This document shows positions 5,554-40,649 of a stretch of DNA of 64,000 bases, piece by piece. This DNA comes from Shigella phage ESh28, in the sequence record ON528738; one strand, 5' to 3'. How positions within the stretch are numbered: the first letter of the stretch is position 1; every line of letters starts with the position of its first letter. Under the pieces are notes generated by a model. It had not been told where the DNA came from and ran no database searches. It saw only the letters and a program-made list of their open reading frames with translations. A program made the translations under genes and the position numbers.

Positions 5554-7255
<1,702 letters not shown>

Positions 7256-25639: not shown

Positions 25640-26336
<697 letters not shown>

Positions 26337-28224: not shown

Positions 28225-28297
28225 TGGGAATTAGCCAAGTTGGTAAGGCATAGCACTTTGACTGCTAGATGCAAAGGTTCGAGTCCTTTATTCCCAG
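28225..28297 (+). tRNA. tRNA-Gln (anticodon UUG)
   Basis: Cloverleaf: acceptor tgggaat/attccca, anticodon stem tagca/tgcta with loop cuUUGac, T-loop TTCGAGT. Confidence 0.85.
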
Positions 28298-28298
28298 C

Positions 28299-28385
28299 GC
28301 GAGAATGGTCAAATTGGTAAAGGCACAGCACTTAAAATGCTGCGGAATGATTTCCTTGTGGGTTCGAGTCCCACTTCTCGCACCA
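28299..28385 (+). tRNA. tRNA-Leu (anticodon UAA)
   Basis: Class II tRNA: acceptor gcgagaa/ttctcgc, anticodon stem cagca/tgctg with loop cuUAAaa, long variable arm, encoded CCA. Confidence 0.85.
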
Positions 28386-28390
28386 AATTT

Positions 28391-28464
<74 letters not shown>

Positions 28465-28474
28465 ATTTAATTTA

Positions 28475-28548
28475 CTCCGTGTAGCTCAGTTTGGTAGAGC
28501 GTCTGCTTTGGGAGCAGAATGTCGCAGGTTCAAATCCTGCCGTGGAGA
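28475..28548 (+). tRNA. tRNA-Pro (anticodon UGG)
   Basis: Acceptor ctccgtg/cgtggag, anticodon stem tctgc/gcaga with loop uuUGGga, T-loop TTCAAAT. Confidence 0.8.
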
Positions 28549-28550
28549 CT

Positions 28551-28640
28551 GGAGGCGTGGCAGAGTGGTTTAATGCACCGGTCTTGAAAACCGGCAGTCG
28601 CTCCGGCGACTCATAGGTTCAAATCCTATCGCCTCCGCCA
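28551..28640 (+). tRNA. tRNA-Ser (anticodon UGA)
   Basis: Class II: acceptor ggaggcg/cgcctcc, anticodon stem ccggt/accgg with loop cuUGAaa, long variable arm, encoded CCA. Confidence 0.85.
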
Positions 28641-28645
28641 GTTTT

Positions 28646-28721
28646 GCTGATTTAGCTCAGTAGGTAGAGCAACTCACTTGTAATGAGAAGGTCGGCGGTT
28701 CGATTCCGTCAATCAGCACCA
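28646..28721 (+). tRNA. tRNA-Thr (anticodon UGU)
   Basis: Acceptor gctgatt/aatcagc, anticodon loop cuUGUaa, T-loop TTCGATT, encoded CCA. Confidence 0.85.
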
Positions 28722-28722
28722 A

Positions 28723-28797
28723 GGCCCTGTAGCTGGAAGGTTCAAGCAAGCGACTCATAATCGCCAGATGGTGGTTCAATTCCACCCAGGGCCACCA
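28723..28797 (+). tRNA. tRNA-Ile (anticodon CAU, lysidine type; Met by anticodon alone)
   Basis: Acceptor ggccctg/cagggcc, anticodon loop cuCAUaa, T-loop TTCAATT; occupies the position of T4 tRNA-Ile. Confidence 0.75.
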
Positions 28798-28809
28798 AAT
28801 TATGAATTA

Positions 28810-28896
28810 GGGGAGTTATCCCGTAGAGGTAGCGGTGTGGACTGTAAATCCATTGTCATTGCGACTCGGGTGGTTCGACTCCATCACTCCCCACCA
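28810..28896 (+). tRNA. tRNA-Tyr (anticodon GUA)
   Basis: Class II: acceptor ggggagt/actcccc, anticodon stem gtgga/tccat with loop cuGUAaa, long variable arm, T-stem ggtgg/ccatc, encoded CCA. Confidence 0.75.
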
Positions 28897-28900
28897 ATTT

Positions 28901-28975
28901 GGATGTGTAGCTCAATGGCAGAGCGATCGCCTGTTAAGCGATTGGTTATAGGTTCGAATCCTATCACGTCCGCCA
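28901..28975 (+). tRNA. tRNA-Asn (anticodon GUU)
   Basis: Acceptor ggatgtg/cacgtcc, D-stem gctc/gagc, anticodon stem atcgc/gcgat with loop cuGUUaa, T-stem atagg/cctat, encoded CCA. Confidence 0.8.
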
Positions 28976-28979
28976 AATC

Positions 28980-29055
28980 CGAGGCATAGCTCAGAAGGAA
29001 GAGCAAGGACCTTCTAAGTCCTAGGTCGTAGGTTCGATCCCTACTGCCTCGACCA
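28980..29055 (+). tRNA. tRNA-Arg (anticodon UCU)
   Basis: Acceptor cgaggca/tgcctcg, D-stem gctc/gagc, anticodon stem aggac/gtcct with loop cuUCUaa, T-loop TTCGATC, encoded CCA. Confidence 0.85.
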
Positions 29056-33101: not shown

Positions 33102-33538
33102 AAACATTATCAGCTGGTATTATCTTCATGACAGAAGATAAAGATTTATTTATGGGTCGGGTTACTGGTTCTCGTAAGCCTGGAATGATGGCACATCGCT
33201 GGGATATTCCAAAGGGACGTGTAGAAAGTTCTGATTTGAATGCACTGGAAGCTGCAAAAAGAGAATGCTTAGAAGAGACCGGTTTTAGCAATTATAATCC
33301 AGACCTTCTAGAAGACCTAGGTGTATTTAAATATTCTAGTAATAAAGACTTACAGTTATTTTATTATACGATTCCAGTAGAGCATGAGATGTTCAGAAAT
33401 TGCTATTGTGAGTCTTATTTTGAAAATAAAGATGGCGTTATGATTCCAGAGATGGATGCTTTTGCTCTTATTCCTCGTACTCAGTGGCAATATGTGATGG
33501 GTCCTTCACTTTACCGAATAATGAACAACCTCTTTTAA
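33083..33538 (+). CDS. nudE: Nudix hydrolase NudE
   Basis: 151 aa; Nudix box GRVESSDLNALEAAKRECLEETGF; directly upstream of e as in T4 (an alternative start at 33098 has a better SD). Confidence 0.85.
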   Translation: MQEIKMKTLSAGIIFMTEDKDLFMGRVTGSRKPGMMAHRWDIPKGRVESSDLNALEAAKRECLEETGFSNYNPDLLEDLGVFKYSSNKDLQLFYYTIPVEHEMFRNCYCESYFENKDGVMIPEMDAFALIPRTQWQYVMGPSLYRIMNNLF

Positions 33539-34069
<531 letters not shown>

Positions 34070-34106
34070 AGTTGTTTACTTTCTCCTAGAATTGTGATAG
34101 TATATT
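34070..34106 (+). promoter_or_regulatory. T4 early promoter module upstream of denV
   Basis: -35 GTTTAC with a -10-like gtgaTAGTAT about 18 bp downstream. Confidence 0.5.
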
Positions 34107-34128
34107 CACAGTTACTTGGAGGGATAAA

Positions 34129-34545
34129 ATGACTCGTATTAATTTGACTTTAGTATCTGAACTTGCTGATCAACATTTAATCGCAGAATACCGTGAATTG
34201 CCGCGTGTTTTTGGTATAGTTCGTAAACATGTTGCAAATGGTAAGCGGGTTAAAGATTTTAAAATATCTTCCGAGTTTATTTTAGGTTCTGGTCATGTTA
34301 CTTTCTTTTACGATAAGTTAGAATTTTTGCGAAAGCGTCAATCAGACATTATAACGGAATGCTTAAAACGTGGGTTTAGTATAAAAGATACTGAAGTTCC
34401 TGACATCAGCGATATTCCAGTAGAATGGAAAAATGATTATAATCCATGCAAATCAGCTATTAAATTGAGTCAACAACGACTTGATGAAAAAATTTTAATG
34501 AAACCACATTGGTATAAGTATTACGGTAAAAATATTTACATTTAA
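34129..34545 (+). CDS. denV: endonuclease V (pyrimidine-dimer DNA glycosylase)
   Basis: 138 aa, [29 protein letters not shown]..., matches T4 endonuclease V as remembered. Confidence 0.95.
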
Positions 34546-34554
34546 AGGAAACCC

Positions 34555-35028
34555 ATGAAAACATATCAAGAATTTATTACTGAAGCAGCTATTAATTCTC
34601 AAATTATTGCTGAATCTTTTACTGATCTTTTGAAATTTAAAAAAGGTCAAAAAATCACTGCTGTATTGGATGATGGTACAGAAGTTGAGATGGATGTACA
34701 GGGATATAATTATGCAGTAGATGGAAAACTGTATAATAAATCTCATGCTAAATTTGATTCATTTGACGATTTTGTTAATACAGTTGAAGATGAAAAAACT
34801 CGTAGATCCATTGCAACTGGCGACGCTAAGGTTCTTATGGCACACGGTCATGAACGTATCCGCGTCAAACAGAATAAAATGGGCGAAGATAATTTCGCAT
34901 TAGTTGGTTATCAATCTGGTAAACAAACTTATGGCTATCAACGTACTGCTACCATGTATAACAAAAATGGTAAAATTGCCTTTGTAAATAGTAAAGGTTC
35001 TATTCAGTACGTTAAATCGTTCAAATAA
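34555..35028 (+). CDS. internal-protein-like protein with capsid-targeting N-terminus
   Basis: 157 aa; N-terminus MKTYQEFITEAA matches the capsid-targeting consensus; located between denV and the regB-side small genes, not at the T4 ipII/ipIII position. Confidence 0.55.
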   Translation: MKTYQEFITEAAINSQIIAESFTDLLKFKKGQKITAVLDDGTEVEMDVQGYNYAVDGKLYNKSHAKFDSFDDFVNTVEDEKTRRSIATGDAKVLMAHGHERIRVKQNKMGEDNFALVGYQSGKQTYGYQRTATMYNKNGKIAFVNSKGSIQYVKSFK

Positions 35029-35180
35029 GCAAATAAGAAATATGGGAACAAACTGGACCTCATGATTCTGTGAGGGATTCCCGCCAACCTGTAATAAGGT
35101 CGAGCCCAAGTGCGGTAATGGGTAAATACAGAAATGGACAATTCATGCGCCACGGAATGGCCCAAATTTAGAGAGAAGAA

Positions 35181-35720
35181 ATGAGAACATTTTTAACTGG
35201 TCCTTATCTATCCCTGATGAATGCTTTTACACACCATTCTGATGCTAGAGTAGAAGAAATTTGTAAAAACGATTATATCCCACCATTTGAAGACTTACTT
35301 AAGCAGTATTGCACACTTCGACTAGATGGTGGACGTCAATCCGGTAAATCAACTGCAGTAACTAATTTTGCCGCTAATTGGTTGTATGACGGTGGAACAG
35401 TTATTGTTCTTTCTAATACTTCAGCTTACGCTAAAATTTCCGCAGATAATATTAAAAAGGAATTTTCGCGTTATTCTAATGATGATATTCGATTCCGCTT
35501 ATTTACTGATTCTGTGCGCAGTTTTATTGGTAATAAAGGAAGCAAGTTCAGAGGTTTATCGCTTTCGCGAATTTTATATATAATTGATGAGCCTGTCAAA
35601 TCTCCTGATATGGATAAGATTTATAGTGTCCATATTGACACTGTACACTGCTGCTGTAATATTAAATGTTGCATTGGTGGTATTACTCGTCCACAGTTTT
35701 TCGTAATCGGAATGCAATGA
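35181..35720 (+). CDS. P-loop NTPase-like hypothetical protein
   Basis: 179 aa; Walker A-like GGRQSGKST and Walker B-like hydrophobic run ending IIDE. Confidence 0.6.
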   Translation: MRTFLTGPYLSLMNAFTHHSDARVEEICKNDYIPPFEDLLKQYCTLRLDGGRQSGKSTAVTNFAANWLYDGGTVIVLSNTSAYAKISADNIKKEFSRYSNDDIRFRLFTDSVRSFIGNKGSKFRGLSLSRILYIIDEPVKSPDMDKIYSVHIDTVHCCCNIKCCIGGITRPQFFVIGMQ

Positions 35721-36046
35721 TGACAGACACTCAGCTTTTCGAATATCTTTATTTTTCGCCAAAAACTATTAAAAATAAATTGGTGAATCATTTTGAAATT
35801 TTGGCAAATAACAACGTCTTGAGCGAATTTTATCCTAAGCAATACAAATTACAAAAAGGCGTATTCAAAGGATGCAGAGTTTTGTGTACTGCTCCTAATG
35901 CACGGTTAATGAATAAAATTCCATATTTTACCATGGAATTTATTGATGGTCCTTTTAAAGGACTAATCACACAGAGTTTAATGGCATATGATTCTGAGCC
36001 ATTTTTAATTAAAGAACAATCTTGGATAAATTTATTTTCTAATTGA
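35717..36046 (+). CDS. hypothetical protein
   Basis: 109 aa from ATG at 35717 ([13 protein letters not shown]...), ATGA overlap with the previous stop. Confidence 0.55.
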
Positions 36047-36053
36047 GGTTTAT

Positions 36054-36416
36054 ATGAAAGCATATCAAATTCTTGAAGGCACACACAAAGGTACTATTTA
36101 TTTTGAAGATGGTATTCAAGCACGAATTATTGTCTCTAAAACCTTTAAAGAGGACTCTTTTGTAGACCCAGAAATTTTCTACGGTTTGCATTCCCGTGAA
36201 ATTGAAATTGAAACACAACCTACAGTTAAAATTGAAGGTGGTCAACACCTGAACGTTAACGTTCTGCGTCGTGAAACTCTGGAAGATGCAGTTAAGCATC
36301 CGGAAAAATATCCGCAGCTGACCATCCGTGTATCCGGTTATGCAGTTCGCTTTAACTCTCTGACTCCGGAACAGCAGCGCGACGTTATCGCTCGTACCTT
36401 CACCGAGAGCTTGTAA
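36054..36416 (+). CDS. autonomous glycyl radical cofactor (GrcA/YfiD-like; T4 Y06I homolog)
   Basis: 120 aa; C-terminal half [59 protein letters not shown] carries the RVSGY glycyl-radical motif; codon usage switches to GC-rich host-like codons near 36240. Confidence 0.85.
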
Positions 36417-36637
36417 TGGCAAAGATAATTATTGAAGGTTCTGAAGATGTGCTAAATGCTTTCGCCGAGTGGTTTAGTAATTCAGGCGAACAGCAATTTA
36501 ATGAAGCATGGAACATGGGTGATATTAATGGAATTTATCCTACGACAGAAATTTCTGTTCAGGGATATGGCATTCATGAACCTATTCGTTTAGTTGAATA
36601 TGATTTATGCACTGGTGAGGAAGTCAAATATGATTGA
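36416..36637 (+). CDS. hypothetical protein
   Basis: 73-aa ORF, start abuts the previous stop. Confidence 0.55.
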   Translation: MAKIIIEGSEDVLNAFAEWFSNSGEQQFNEAWNMGDINGIYPTTEISVQGYGIHEPIRLVEYDLCTGEEVKYD

Positions 36638-36896
36638 AGATATTAAAGGTTATAAGCCACATACCGACGAAAAAATCGGTAAAGTAAATGCTATCAAAGA
36701 TGCTGAAGTTCGTTTAGGACTTATCTTTGATGCTTTATACGATGAATTTTGGGAAGCATTTGATAGCTGTGAAGATGATGAACTCGCGAAGAATTATGCT
36801 GAAAGCCTCGATCAGTTAACTATTGCTAAAACGAAACTCAAAGAAGCCAGTATGTGGGCTTGCCGTGCTGTGTTCCAACCAGAGGAAAAATACTAA
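36630..36896 (+). CDS. hypothetical protein, candidate Vs.4/Acb2-like
   Basis: 88 aa from ATG at 36630 ([17 protein letters not shown]...); sits at the vs.4 position counting from regB; assignment by position and size only. Confidence 0.5.
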
Positions 36897-37174
36897 TGGC
36901 TCAATTAAGTGCAGGGTTTGGTTATGAATATTATACTGCACCTCGTCGTGTATCTGCCGCTCCTAAGAAAATTCAAAGTCTTGATGACTTCCAAGAAGTA
37001 ATTCGTAATGCTTTCCAGGACTATGCGCGTTATCTTAAAGAAGATTCACAGGACTGCCTCGAAGAAGATGAAATTGCTTACTATGCGCAGCGTCTTGAAC
37101 AGCTCAAAAATCTACATGAGGTTCGTGCAGAAGTTTCAAAGTCTATGAATAAATTGATCAGATTTAAAGAATAA
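36896..37174 (+). CDS. hypothetical protein
   Basis: 92 aa from ATG at 36896 ([13 protein letters not shown]...), TAATG overlap with the previous stop. Confidence 0.55.
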
Positions 37175-37208
37175 CTGTTTACTTTTCCTCTTGACTGTGG
37201 TATAATTT
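37175..37208 (+). promoter_or_regulatory. sigma70-type early promoter upstream of regB
   Basis: -35 GTTTAC and extended -10 TGgTATAAT. Confidence 0.6.
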
Positions 37209-37233
37209 TTCTATCAGTTAAGAGGAGAATAAC

Positions 37234-37695
37234 ATGACTATCAATACAGAAGTTTTTATCCGTCGAAATAAGCTCCGTCGTCACTTTGAGTCGGAGTTTC
37301 GTCAAATTAACAATGAGATTCGTGAGGCATCAAAAGCAGCAGGGGTCTCATCGTTTCATCTAAAATATTCTCAGCATCTTCTTGATCGTGCAATTCAACG
37401 GGAGATTGATGAGACATATGTTTTTGAATTATTCCATAAAATAAAAGACCATGTTTTAGAAGTTAATGAATTCCTGAGTATGCCTCCACGTCCTGACATT
37501 GACGAGGATTTTATTGATGGGGTTGAATATCGTCCTGGACGTTTAGAAATCACAGATGGAAATCTTTGGCTTGGATTTACAGTTTGTAAACCTAATGCGA
37601 AGTTCAAAGACCCGTCACTTCAGTGCAGGATGGCAATTATCAATAGTCGCCGTTTACCAGGAAAGGCTTCTAAAGCAGTAATTAAAACTCAATGA
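37234..37695 (+). CDS. regB: endoribonuclease RegB
   Basis: 153 aa, MTINTEVFIRRNKLRRHFESEFRQINNEIREASK..., matches T4 RegB as remembered. Confidence 0.93.
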   Translation: MTINTEVFIRRNKLRRHFESEFRQINNEIREASKAAGVSSFHLKYSQHLLDRAIQREIDETYVFELFHKIKDHVLEVNEFLSMPPRPDIDEDFIDGVEYRPGRLEITDGNLWLGFTVCKPNAKFKDPSLQCRMAIINSRRLPGKASKAVIKTQ

Positions 37696-37702
37696 GGTAA
37701 GC

Positions 37703-38248
37703 ATGAGAAAAGCACTACTCGCTGGTCTATTGGCCATTTCAATGATGGCACATAGCTCCGAGCATACTTTCAGTAATGTCCAACTCGATAACATGCGTTA
37801 CGCGTATCAATTCGGGGAACAATTTTCTAAGGATGGAAAATATAAAACACACAAAAATATCCACAAGAGCGGATTAGGTCATATAATGGCTGCTATTTTA
37901 TGGCAAGAAAGCTCTGGCGGAGTTAATTTAAAATCTAAACCAAAGCATCACGCCTACGGAATGTTCCAAAATTATTTGCCTACTATGCGAGCAAGAGTTA
38001 AGGAACTTGGTTATAATATGACCGATGCTGAAATAAAAAGAATGTTGAATAAACGATCCAATTCAGCTTCCTGGGCGTACATTGAACTTTCTTATTGGTT
38101 AAATATACATAAGGGCGATATAAGAAAAGCAATATCCTCTTATAATTCGGGATGGAATGTTAAAGCTGGTTCTAAATATGCTTCTGAAGTCCTAGAAAAG
38201 GCTAATTACCTTAAAAATAATAAACTTTTGGAAATAGTAAATGACTAA
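37703..38248 (+). CDS. secreted lytic-transglycosylase-like protein
   Basis: 181 aa; N-terminal signal peptide (MRKALLAGLLAISMMAHS); SLT-like motifs WQESSGG, GMFQ, SYNSG. Confidence 0.6.
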   Translation: MRKALLAGLLAISMMAHSSEHTFSNVQLDNMRYAYQFGEQFSKDGKYKTHKNIHKSGLGHIMAAILWQESSGGVNLKSKPKHHAYGMFQNYLPTMRARVKELGYNMTDAEIKRMLNKRSNSASWAYIELSYWLNIHKGDIRKAISSYNSGWNVKAGSKYASEVLEKANYLKNNKLLEIVND

Positions 38249-38588
38249 AATTTTAGTTTTATGTATAGGATTAATTTCATTTTCTGCTTCTGCGTCAGCA
38301 GATACATCATATACTGAAATTAGAGAATATGTAAACCGCACTGCGGCAGATTATTGTGGGAAAAATAAAGCATGCCAAGCTGAATTTGCACAGAAATTAA
38401 TATATGCATATAAAGACGGAGAAAGAGATAAATCAAGCAGATACAAAAACGATACATTATTAAAACGATATGCTAAAAAGTGGAATACCTTAGAATGTTC
38501 AGTTGCGGAGGAGAAAGATAAAGCCGCTTGTCATTCAATGGTTGACCGTTTAGTAGATTCTTATAATCGAGGATTGAGTACTAGATGA
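38241..38588 (+). CDS. secreted Cys-containing small protein
   Basis: 115 aa; signal peptide MTKILVLCIGLISFSASASA; four Cys. Confidence 0.6.
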   Translation: MTKILVLCIGLISFSASASADTSYTEIREYVNRTAADYCGKNKACQAEFAQKLIYAYKDGERDKSSRYKNDTLLKRYAKKWNTLECSVAEEKDKAACHSMVDRLVDSYNRGLSTR

Positions 38589-39064
38589 TTGTAAAATATA
38601 TCAAGGGCGATATTGTCGCCCTATTTCTTCAAGGTAATATTATTGCGCACGGGTGCAATTGCTTCCACACAATGGGCTCTGGCGTAGCGGGTCAATTAGC
38701 AAGAGCCTATCCCAAAATTTTAGAAATAGATAAAACCACTACCGAGTACGGTTCTCGTGATAAATTAGGCGATATGTCTATTGTTTTTAAACATAGTCCT
38801 ACGGGATTTGGTATATGCTATAACCTGTATACACAATACGAACCGGGTCCTAATCTTGATTATGGTGCTTTAGTAAACTGCATGATAGAATTAAATCTAC
38901 AGGCAGAAACCCTTTTGTTTAAACCAGTAATTTACATTCCACGCATAGGTTGTGGTATTGCTGGCGGTGATTGGGATAAGGTTTCTAAATTAATCGACAT
39001 GTTTACTCCTGATATTGATTTGATAGTGGTGGATTATGAAAGTACATTACCCGCATCCGTTTGA
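38585..39064 (+). CDS. macro-domain-like protein (putative ADP-ribose binding/processing)
   Basis: 159 aa; GDIVAL...NIIAHGCNCFHTMGSGVAGQLA and PRIGCGIAGGDW resemble macro-domain glycine-rich ADP-ribose-binding loops. Confidence 0.5.
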   Translation: MIVKYIKGDIVALFLQGNIIAHGCNCFHTMGSGVAGQLARAYPKILEIDKTTTEYGSRDKLGDMSIVFKHSPTGFGICYNLYTQYEPGPNLDYGALVNCMIELNLQAETLLFKPVIYIPRIGCGIAGGDWDKVSKLIDMFTPDIDLIVVDYESTLPASV

Positions 39065-39248
39065 TCCTAAAAACAAAGCAGAAATTATTCGTCAATGGGA
39101 ACGCATTTGCCGTACTAAATGTCCAATTAATAGTCCACATGATGTAGATAAAGACTACATTGGAACATTCGTTGAATATACCTTTATTGATAAGAAAGGT
39201 CGTAAACAACATGTAGAAGAATATTGCTTAAAGGTTACATGGTTATGA
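39036..39248 (+). CDS. hypothetical protein
   Basis: 70-aa ORF overlapping the 3' end of the previous gene by 29 nt. Confidence 0.4.
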   Translation: MKVHYPHPFDPKNKAEIIRQWERICRTKCPINSPHDVDKDYIGTFVEYTFIDKKGRKQHVEEYCLKVTWL

Positions 39249-39451
39249 GCCAAACTAGTATTCTTAAAAATGCCCACTGTGAAAAGTGTAAGTGGCCGGT
39301 TGTTTTTGCTTTATGTAATGATGAAATGGCTTGTGATTTCGATTATTGGTGCTATTGTTCTAATAAAGGATGCATCAATCATAAAGGTGAAGGATTTTAT
39401 TCAGGATTTTATCCTTATCCTGATTTCGTTAAAGAAGGTAAACCAAAATGA
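39245..39451 (+). CDS. Cys-rich small protein (zinc-ribbon-like)
   Basis: 68 aa from ATG at 39245 (MSQTSILKNAHCEKCKWP...); CxxC...C...CxC...C pattern; ATGA overlap with the previous stop. Confidence 0.5.
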   Translation: MSQTSILKNAHCEKCKWPVVFALCNDEMACDFDYWCYCSNKGCINHKGEGFYSGFYPYPDFVKEGKPK

Positions 39452-39621
39452 ATAGTTTTGAGTTACAATACGAAGTGTTACGTGAGCTTGATAATTTAAT
39501 TGAACTCGCTGTTAATAAAGGTTTTGCCATTGGAATCGGTCAAAAAGATACTGGTCATTTAACTATGGAAATATTTAAGCAAAAGCGAATTATTTTAAAA
39601 CTCCTGGAAATTAATATATGA
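39448..39621 (+). CDS. hypothetical protein
   Basis: 57-aa ORF (MNSFELQYEVLRELDNL...) found by reading the frame; below the ORF-track length cutoff; coupled to both neighbours by overlapping stop/start. Confidence 0.4.
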   Translation: MNSFELQYEVLRELDNLIELAVNKGFAIGIGQKDTGHLTMEIFKQKRIILKLLEINI

Positions 39622-39803
39622 GTCTGAGTAAAGAACAAAAAGATAAATTGTTTGAGCTTATCCATGAACTTCTAGATGAGCATACAGAAACAAACACCTT
39701 TTATGATGAATACGGCCCGCTATCTCCCGAACAGCAGGAAGAATTTGTTGATCGGTTTGATAAGAAAGAAAATGAATTAATAGCTTATGTGAATACGCTT
39801 TAA
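39618..39803 (+). CDS. hypothetical protein
   Basis: 61-aa acidic ORF immediately upstream of tk. Confidence 0.5.
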   Translation: MSLSKEQKDKLFELIHELLDEHTETNTFYDEYGPLSPEQQEEFVDRFDKKENELIAYVNTL

Positions 39804-39812
39804 GAAGGTGAT

Positions 39813-40394
39813 ATGGCGAGTTTAATTTTTACTTATGCAGCAATGAATGCTGGAAAATCTGCTTCTCTTTTGACTGCTGCGCATAATTATAAAGAACGTG
39901 GAATGAGTGTATTAGTTCTTAAGCCTGCTATTGATACTCGCGATTCTGTCTGTGAAGTTGTTTCTCGCATTGGAATTAAACAGGAAGCGAATATTATTAC
40001 AGATGATATGGATATTTTCGAATTCTATAAATGGGCCGAAGCACAAAAAGATATTCATTGCGTATTTGTAGATGAAGCTCAGTTTTTAAAAACTGAACAG
40101 GTGCACCAATTAAGCCGAATTGTTGATACATATAATGTTCCTGTTATGACTTATGGATTAAGGACTGATTTCGCTGGAAAATTGTTTGAAGGTTCTAAAG
40201 AACTTTTAGCGATTGCAGATAAACTTATTGAACTAAAGGCAGTTTGTCATTGCGGCAAAAAAGCGATTATGACAGCTCGATTAATGGAAGATGGAACACC
40301 AGTTAAAGAAGGTAATCAAATCTGTATTGGTGATGAAATTTATGTTTCTTTGTGCAGAAAACATTGGAATGAATTAACTAAAAAGCTCGGTTAG
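39813..40394 (+). CDS. tk: thymidine kinase
   Basis: 193 aa; P-loop AAMNAGKSASLL; C-terminal Zn ribbon CHCG...C; T4 tk size. Confidence 0.93.
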   Translation: MASLIFTYAAMNAGKSASLLTAAHNYKERGMSVLVLKPAIDTRDSVCEVVSRIGIKQEANIITDDMDIFEFYKWAEAQKDIHCVFVDEAQFLKTEQVHQLSRIVDTYNVPVMTYGLRTDFAGKLFEGSKELLAIADKLIELKAVCHCGKKAIMTARLMEDGTPVKEGNQICIGDEIYVSLCRKHWNELTKKLG

Positions 40395-40436
40395 TGCAAA
40401 AGTTATAAATAGGTTTATCTAACTAAAGGGGTATAT

Positions 40437-40649
40437 ATGCTACAATTAACTGAAAAGCAACTTCGCAATCTTACTGTGCTTCAATTAGATGAAATTCGTA
40501 GGGAAGTTGGAAATATCATTTCAGCTTTGCGTCGAGAAGTATCACTCAACCAATCTCCGGCAGACTATACTAGATTGCGAAATTTTGAAAAATACCTTGA
40601 TAAAGTTAAGGCCGTGCATCGGCATAAAGTAAATACAGGACAAAAATGA
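40437..40649 (+). CDS. rI.1: hypothetical protein (rI.1 position)
   Basis: 70-aa ORF between tk and rI. Confidence 0.6.

Follow-up and report, generated by a model that had tools for sequence, protein, structure and literature searches.

The closest described relative of the gene considered here is vs.4 of phage T4, the product of which has been crystallized (PDB 7UQ2, entered as 'Vs.4 from T4 phage in complex with cGAMP'; Jenson et al., Nature 2023, PMC10097602). T4 Vs.4 binds cGAMP with a Kd of about 30 nM, and the crystal structure and accompanying mutagenesis assign roles to a small set of its residues: Y8 and F82 make stacking contacts with the bases of cGAMP, hydrogen bonds and salt bridges to the ligand come from Y8, H11, K23 and R79, and S74 is also involved in the site, with the change S74N interfering with the ligand (PMC10097602). 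The hexamer interface is formed by L29, A66, A73 and A77, and more mildly by F33, and T12 caps a helix. Mutations at these contact, interface and cap residues abolish either inhibition of CapV or oligomerization, and the single substitutions T12I, S74N and A77I are each able to inactivate the protein (Jenson et al., PMC10097602).

T4 Vs.4 is also known as Acb2, and the Acb2 proteins differ in the ligands that they accept. T4 Acb2 binds cGAMP (a KD of about 84 nM was reported in this second study) but neither cA3 nor cAAG, and whereas the T4 and CHI14 proteins do not bind cA3, those of PaMx33 (p26; 8H2J, 8H2X and 8IXZ; Huiting et al. 2023; Cao et al., PMC10312549) and JBD67 do. In the PaMx33 protein cyclic trinucleotides occupy a second pocket, for which R67 and T74 are required; the exclusion of trinucleotides by T4 Acb2 has been ascribed to an unkinked helix together with Y37, A57, L60, D61 and T64, with D61 replacing R67 of PaMx33 (Cao et al., PMC10312549). 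T4 Acb2 also binds 2′,3′-c-di-AMP (Kd about 62 nM) and is both necessary and sufficient for triggering of Panoptes (OptSE), and its Y8A and F82C mutants give no such triggering (PMC12657218). A second T4 protein, Acb1 (57B; 7T26), serves the same goal of removing the CBASS cyclic-nucleotide signal, but it is an unrelated 2H phosphoesterase that cleaves the signal, whereas Vs.4 is a sponge, and there is no sequence similarity between the two. That T4 pairs Acb1 with Acb2 was noted previously (PMC10312549).

The window (the whole 64,000-nucleotide stretch of DNA analyzed here) contains an open reading frame of 88 codons at 36630..36896 on the + strand, with an ATG at 36630 and a TAA at 36894–36896. 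We are highly confident that this is a vs.4/acb2 ortholog of the T4 type, and thus an ordinary and already known gene, predicted to encode an 88-aa cyclic-dinucleotide sponge. The earlier note had guessed as much from position and size, and the guess is now supported by features read directly at this locus (the open reading frame, homology, conserved residues, predicted fold and synteny); the identification follows from the full-length match to 7UQ2, the matches to PF24729 and PHROG 717, the residues that are kept, the predicted fold and the gene order. First, in a phmmer search of all PDB chains the product aligns with T4 Vs.4 (7UQ2) along residues 1–88, with 83 of 88 residues identical (94%; E = 4.4e-53). 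Second, it scores 71 bits (cutoff 27) against Pfam PF24729, Acb2_Tad1_hairpin, which is described as a hairpin domain common to Acb2 and Tad1 and not as a model of a whole protein. Third, it matches PHROG 717 (E = 5.6e-32), the source from which Jenson et al. collected 198 Vs.4 homologs (PMC10097602). PaMx33 Acb2 falls in the same Pfam family but is only about 22–24% identical to the window protein, and its full-length match is marginal (8H2J and 8IXZ, E about 0.09 by phmmer). Had the assignment been misplaced, Acb2 homology might have turned up in a different reading frame; tblastn of T4 Vs.4 on the whole window gives 36630..36893 as the sole match, and a search of the whole window for a second Acb2 homolog, with both T4 Vs.4 and the window protein as queries, found nothing else below E = 2.

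The predicted structure points in the same direction. An AlphaFold2 model of the monomer, built on an alignment of homologs (mean pLDDT 87.6, pTM 0.71), is a hairpin of two long helices, residues 13–45 and 50–81, with short tails. When the model was compared with the PDB using Foldseek, the chains of 7UQ2 ranked first (E = 3e-10 to 2e-9, TM 0.78–0.79) and PaMx33 Acb2 second (8H2J and 8H2X, TM 0.73–0.75, probability 1.00), and the remainder were generic helical hairpins with E > 0.3. Alignment with T4 Vs.4 and structural prediction had both been suggested as checks on the positional assignment, and both came out in its favor. A hexameric state is what we infer for the window protein from the unchanged interface residues L29, F33, A66, A73 and A77.

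Membership in the Tad1 (Thoeris anti-defense 1) group was also considered, as the Pfam hairpin model is common to Acb2 and Tad1 and both sequester a signal. It was rejected: the 88-aa window protein consists of the hairpin only, and the structure matches with E < 0.1 are confined to Vs.4/Acb2 entries. Tad1 proteins are longer, with parts beyond the hairpin, and their ligand is gcADPR.

The gene also lies where a vs.4 gene is expected. The window comes from a Tequatrovirus, a T4-like phage; a 4-kb segment surrounding vs.4 matches 902 phage records, the best of them, Escherichia phage vB_Eco_T-01, at 97.7% identity. Mapping of T4 proteins onto the window by tblastn, together with the T4 annotation, gives the order nudE, e, denV, a gene for a 157-aa DUF7412 protein, vs.8, vs.7, vs.6, vs.5, vs.4, vs.3, regB, vs.1, vs, tk.4, tk.3, tk.2 and tk, all on the + strand, and from vs.8 to tk the synteny agrees with T4. 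Within the segment vs.6, vs.5, vs.4, vs.3, regB the order is that of T4, and the layout in vB_Eco_T-01 is the same. The count from regB that underlay the positional assignment holds up: 36630..36896 is the second gene upstream of the regB endoribonuclease gene (37234..37695, +; Pfam REGB_T4, 230 bits; 99.3% identical to T4 RegB), with the 92-aa vs.3 homolog (36896..37174, +; 96.7% identical to T4 Vs.3; PHROG 2037) between them, and regB, vs.3 and vs.4 follow one another in the same way in T4, where vs.4 is likewise 267 bp long. On its other side lies the 73-aa vs.5 homolog (36416..36637, +), identified by tblastn with T4 Vs.5 and by a full-length match to PHROG 1986 (E = 7e-44).

All of the cGAMP-contact and hexamer-interface residues mapped in T4 Vs.4, as well as T12, are identical in the window protein. 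The six pocket residues (Y8, F82, H11, K23, R79 and S74) are moreover invariant, as are A66 and A77, in an alignment of 45 homologs that extends down to 53% identity, and conservation of T12, L29 and A73 in the same set is 90% or higher. The dinucleotide pocket is also a point of likeness with PaMx33 Acb2, with Y8 of the window protein corresponding to the stacking tyrosine Y11 and K23 to the lysine K26. The differences from T4 Vs.4 are five substitutions (E13D, L44F, N46S, C50D and F52L, T4 to window). Position 13 varies among D, E, K and T across the family. Positions 44, 46, 50 and 52 fall in the middle of the family alignment, which is hypervariable and of varying length, and in the model they occupy the end of helix 1, the loop and the start of helix 2, at or near the hairpin tip; the N- and C-terminal tails, which contribute the dinucleotide pocket, lie at the other end.

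The mechanism that we propose carries over from the T4 experiments the hexamer, the binding of ligand, the inhibition of CBASS and the triggering of Panoptes. Six copies of the 88-aa two-helix hairpin would assemble into a hexamer holding three pockets, each lying between the N- and C-terminal residues of two protomers. The pockets would bind 3′,3′-cGAMP and related cyclic dinucleotides with nanomolar affinity and would not cleave them; with the signal of the host cGAS-like CD-NTase sequestered in this way, CBASS effectors such as CapV would stay off and infection could run to completion. As with T4 Acb2, dinucleotides would be bound and trinucleotides not, the latter being left to the Acb1 nuclease encoded at 25881..26336. 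The expected side effect would be sensitivity to Panoptes, since OptSE fires when its decoy 2′,3′-c-di-AMP is sequestered. For a phage whose Acb2 is intact, the prediction is thus resistance to weak type II CBASS and sensitivity to hosts carrying Panoptes (OptSE), which bears on the prediction of host range.

We predict a ligand range restricted to dinucleotides because the trinucleotide-blocking residues Y37, A57, L60, D61 and T64, and also T68, are the same in the window protein as in T4. The second, trinucleotide-type pocket of the PaMx33 and JBD67 proteins was looked for through its two required residues and was not found, the R67 equivalent being D61, although the T74 equivalent, T68, is present. 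It could be argued that the changes at the hairpin tip (F44, S46, D50 and L52) have shifted the range relative to T4 Acb2, so that binding of cyclic trinucleotides or of 3′cADPR has been gained or that of some dinucleotides lost. Homologs do differ in this respect, as the contrasting behavior of the PaMx33 and JBD67 proteins and those of T4 and CHI14 toward cA3 attests (PMC10312549), and the tip substitutions lie in the most variable stretch of the family alignment. However, the residues of the trinucleotide pocket are all as in T4, and even the targeted change D61R failed to give T4 Acb2 the ability to bind cA3 (PMC10312549). Binding of 3′cADPR by Acb2_43 relies on residues of an extra terminal beta-strand, and the termini of the window protein are those of T4. 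Furthermore, the same allele, or one within a single residue of it, is common in Tequatroviruses, with 59 records at ≥99% identity. We therefore regard a shifted range as improbable, and have as little expectation that this tip allele alters the axial second pocket or the stability of the hexamer enough to change which ligands are bound. If it did, natural vs.4 alleles of Tequatroviruses would differ in the defenses that they block or trigger, Panoptes included. No result of the analysis spoke against the preferred reading, a dinucleotide sponge with the properties predicted from T4 Acb2.

A GAGG Shine-Dalgarno sequence at 36618..36621 (+), 9 nt 5′ of the vs.4 ATG, is one that we infer to be the ribosome-binding site of vs.4, and the 26 nt around it (GGTGAGGAAGTCAAATATGATTGAAG) are identical in T4. 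The vs.5 stop codon and the vs.4 start codon overlap (ATGATTGA), from which it is probable that the two genes are translationally coupled and share one transcription unit; the vs.4 stop and the vs.3 start overlap as well (TAATG). At the DNA level vs.4 is identical to its T4 counterpart at 246 of 267 positions, and because 13 of the 18 codons that differ are synonymous and five non-synonymous, the comparison carries the signature of purifying selection on the protein and of coding beyond chance. The region 33500..40500 was scanned for sigma-70 promoters and terminators with the aim of finding the limits of the transcription unit; 23 promoter-like sites were found against 29.4 expected from shuffles, hence no enrichment, and one promoter-like site lies at 37178..37206, just 5′ of regB. 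As the promoter scan did not rise above shuffles, the timing of vs.4 expression is assumed to be that of T4.

The conserved frame might nonetheless encode a protein with no anti-CBASS role in this phage, through an allele that is either unexpressed or destabilized. That the consensus promoter scan around vs.4 does not exceed shuffles is compatible with this, and single changes (T12I, S74N and A77I) suffice to inactivate Vs.4 (PMC10097602). However, the positions at which changes are known to inactivate the protein are all unaltered here; vs.4 shares its Shine-Dalgarno sequence and start context with T4, and the overlaps of vs.4 with vs.5 and vs.3 fit the layout of the T4 operon. The ratio of synonymous to non-synonymous differences and the invariance of the termini across genera likewise speak for selection on the protein, and we consider a silent or defective allele very improbable. 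The frame stays open upstream to a TTG at 36594 (100 aa), with an in-frame ATG also at 36600, and translation from either would add 10–12 N-terminal residues that could disturb the pocket at Y8 and H11, but these starts were rejected in favor of 36630 and almost certainly are not used, since neither has a Shine-Dalgarno sequence such as the GAGG ahead of 36630, the ATG at 36600 is ACG in T4, M(S)IEDIKGY is the N-terminus of homologs in many genera, and the crystallized, active T4 Vs.4 comprises residues 1–88 (PMC10097602).

With vs.4 read as an Acb2 gene translated from 36630, its companion can be considered. The earlier note had supposed that a 57B/Acb1 homolog accompanies it, and this was borne out at 25881..26336 (+). 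The 151-aa product is a predicted 2H phosphoesterase degrading cyclic nucleotides; it matches Acb1 in PDB 7T26 with E = 4.1e-62 and Pfam PF23474 (Acb1) with 202.7 bits (cutoff 27), and both of its HxT motifs are intact, H43-S-T45 and H112-I-T114 aligning to H-T-T and H-I-T of 7T26. Judged by sequence, the phage carries the standard T4 anti-CBASS gene pair, an Acb2 sponge and an Acb1 nuclease, and the pairing is not new. There is accordingly little new biology in the finding, which places the standard T4 pair in another Tequatrovirus.

Its main practical value lies in annotation. The Vs.4 protein matches 1,231 phage records by tblastn, 59 of them at ≥99% identity, and exact matches are already deposited, for example in Escherichia phage slur14. 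In 40 of the deposited phage records, listed so as to spread across the ranking, the product is labeled 'hypothetical protein' or something similarly uninformative, and none of the 40 names Acb2; this annotation can be passed on with confidence. A protein 100% identical to the window Vs.4 is also present in PV654520.1, 'Pseudomonas phage vB_PSGBLB0006' (142 kb, host P. aeruginosa). Such identity is unexpected in a phage of Pseudomonas, and the record may be mislabeled or mixed.

Several other departures from T4 were observed in the window. Next to vs.4 itself, the T4 reference is one base short in vs.5 (T4 6382..6558 in the compared stretch), reading TTTCG-CGAG where the window has TTTCGCCGAG. 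As a consequence of this 1-bp deletion T4 Vs.5 is annotated with 58 aa and is followed by a 36-bp gap before vs.4, whereas the window vs.5 is an intact gene that overlaps the vs.4 start and whose 73-aa product matches PHROG 1986 end to end. From the sequences, it looks as if T4 vs.5 is frameshifted relative to its relatives.

Further upstream, the 219-aa T4 Vs.8 aligns along 35070..35717, but an in-frame TAG interrupts the window sequence at 35169–35171 and three codons are deleted immediately beyond it, so that the intact vs.8 reading frame is 35181..35720, with 179 aa, its first codon corresponding to Met41 of T4. The gene is split in the same way in vB_Eco_T-01, the closest relative. Either codons 1–40 of T4 vs.8 are non-coding or the gene is truncated in this clade. 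The 110 nt 5′ of the window vs.8 frame are highly conserved as DNA; an RNA element was sought at 35029..35185, 5′ of the vs.8 homolog, and this segment gave no Rfam match, and its predicted fold did not surpass that of shuffles (z = 0.26). Between 33575 and 35028 the order is unlike that of T4, with e followed directly by denV, and ipIII and ipII absent between them. The window DenV is 78% identical to T4 DenV, and the 157-aa DUF7412 protein encoded after it (34555..35028), termed 'internal virion protein' in relatives, has weak N-terminal similarity to T4 IPII.

Downstream of vs, the macro-domain protein Tk.4 (38585..39064; Pfam Macro, 32 bits) is only 58% identical to T4 Tk.4, although identity to T4 is 100% for the flanking vs and 94% for tk.3; tk.4 has the look of an exchanged or rapidly evolving allele of what is possibly an ADP-ribose-related gene. 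A homolog of T4 tk.1 was sought in 39224..39803 by tblastn with T4 proteins and was not found there. Ahead of tk.2 are a 75-aa Cys-rich reading frame (39224..39451) and one of 57 aa (39448..39621), and the tk.2 homolog itself is 54% identical to T4 Tk.2. Finally, a tRNA cluster lies at 28225..29052 (+), with ten Rfam matches, that at 28812..28891 being borderline (30.2 bits, the gathering score being 29); the number of tRNA genes in T4 is eight.
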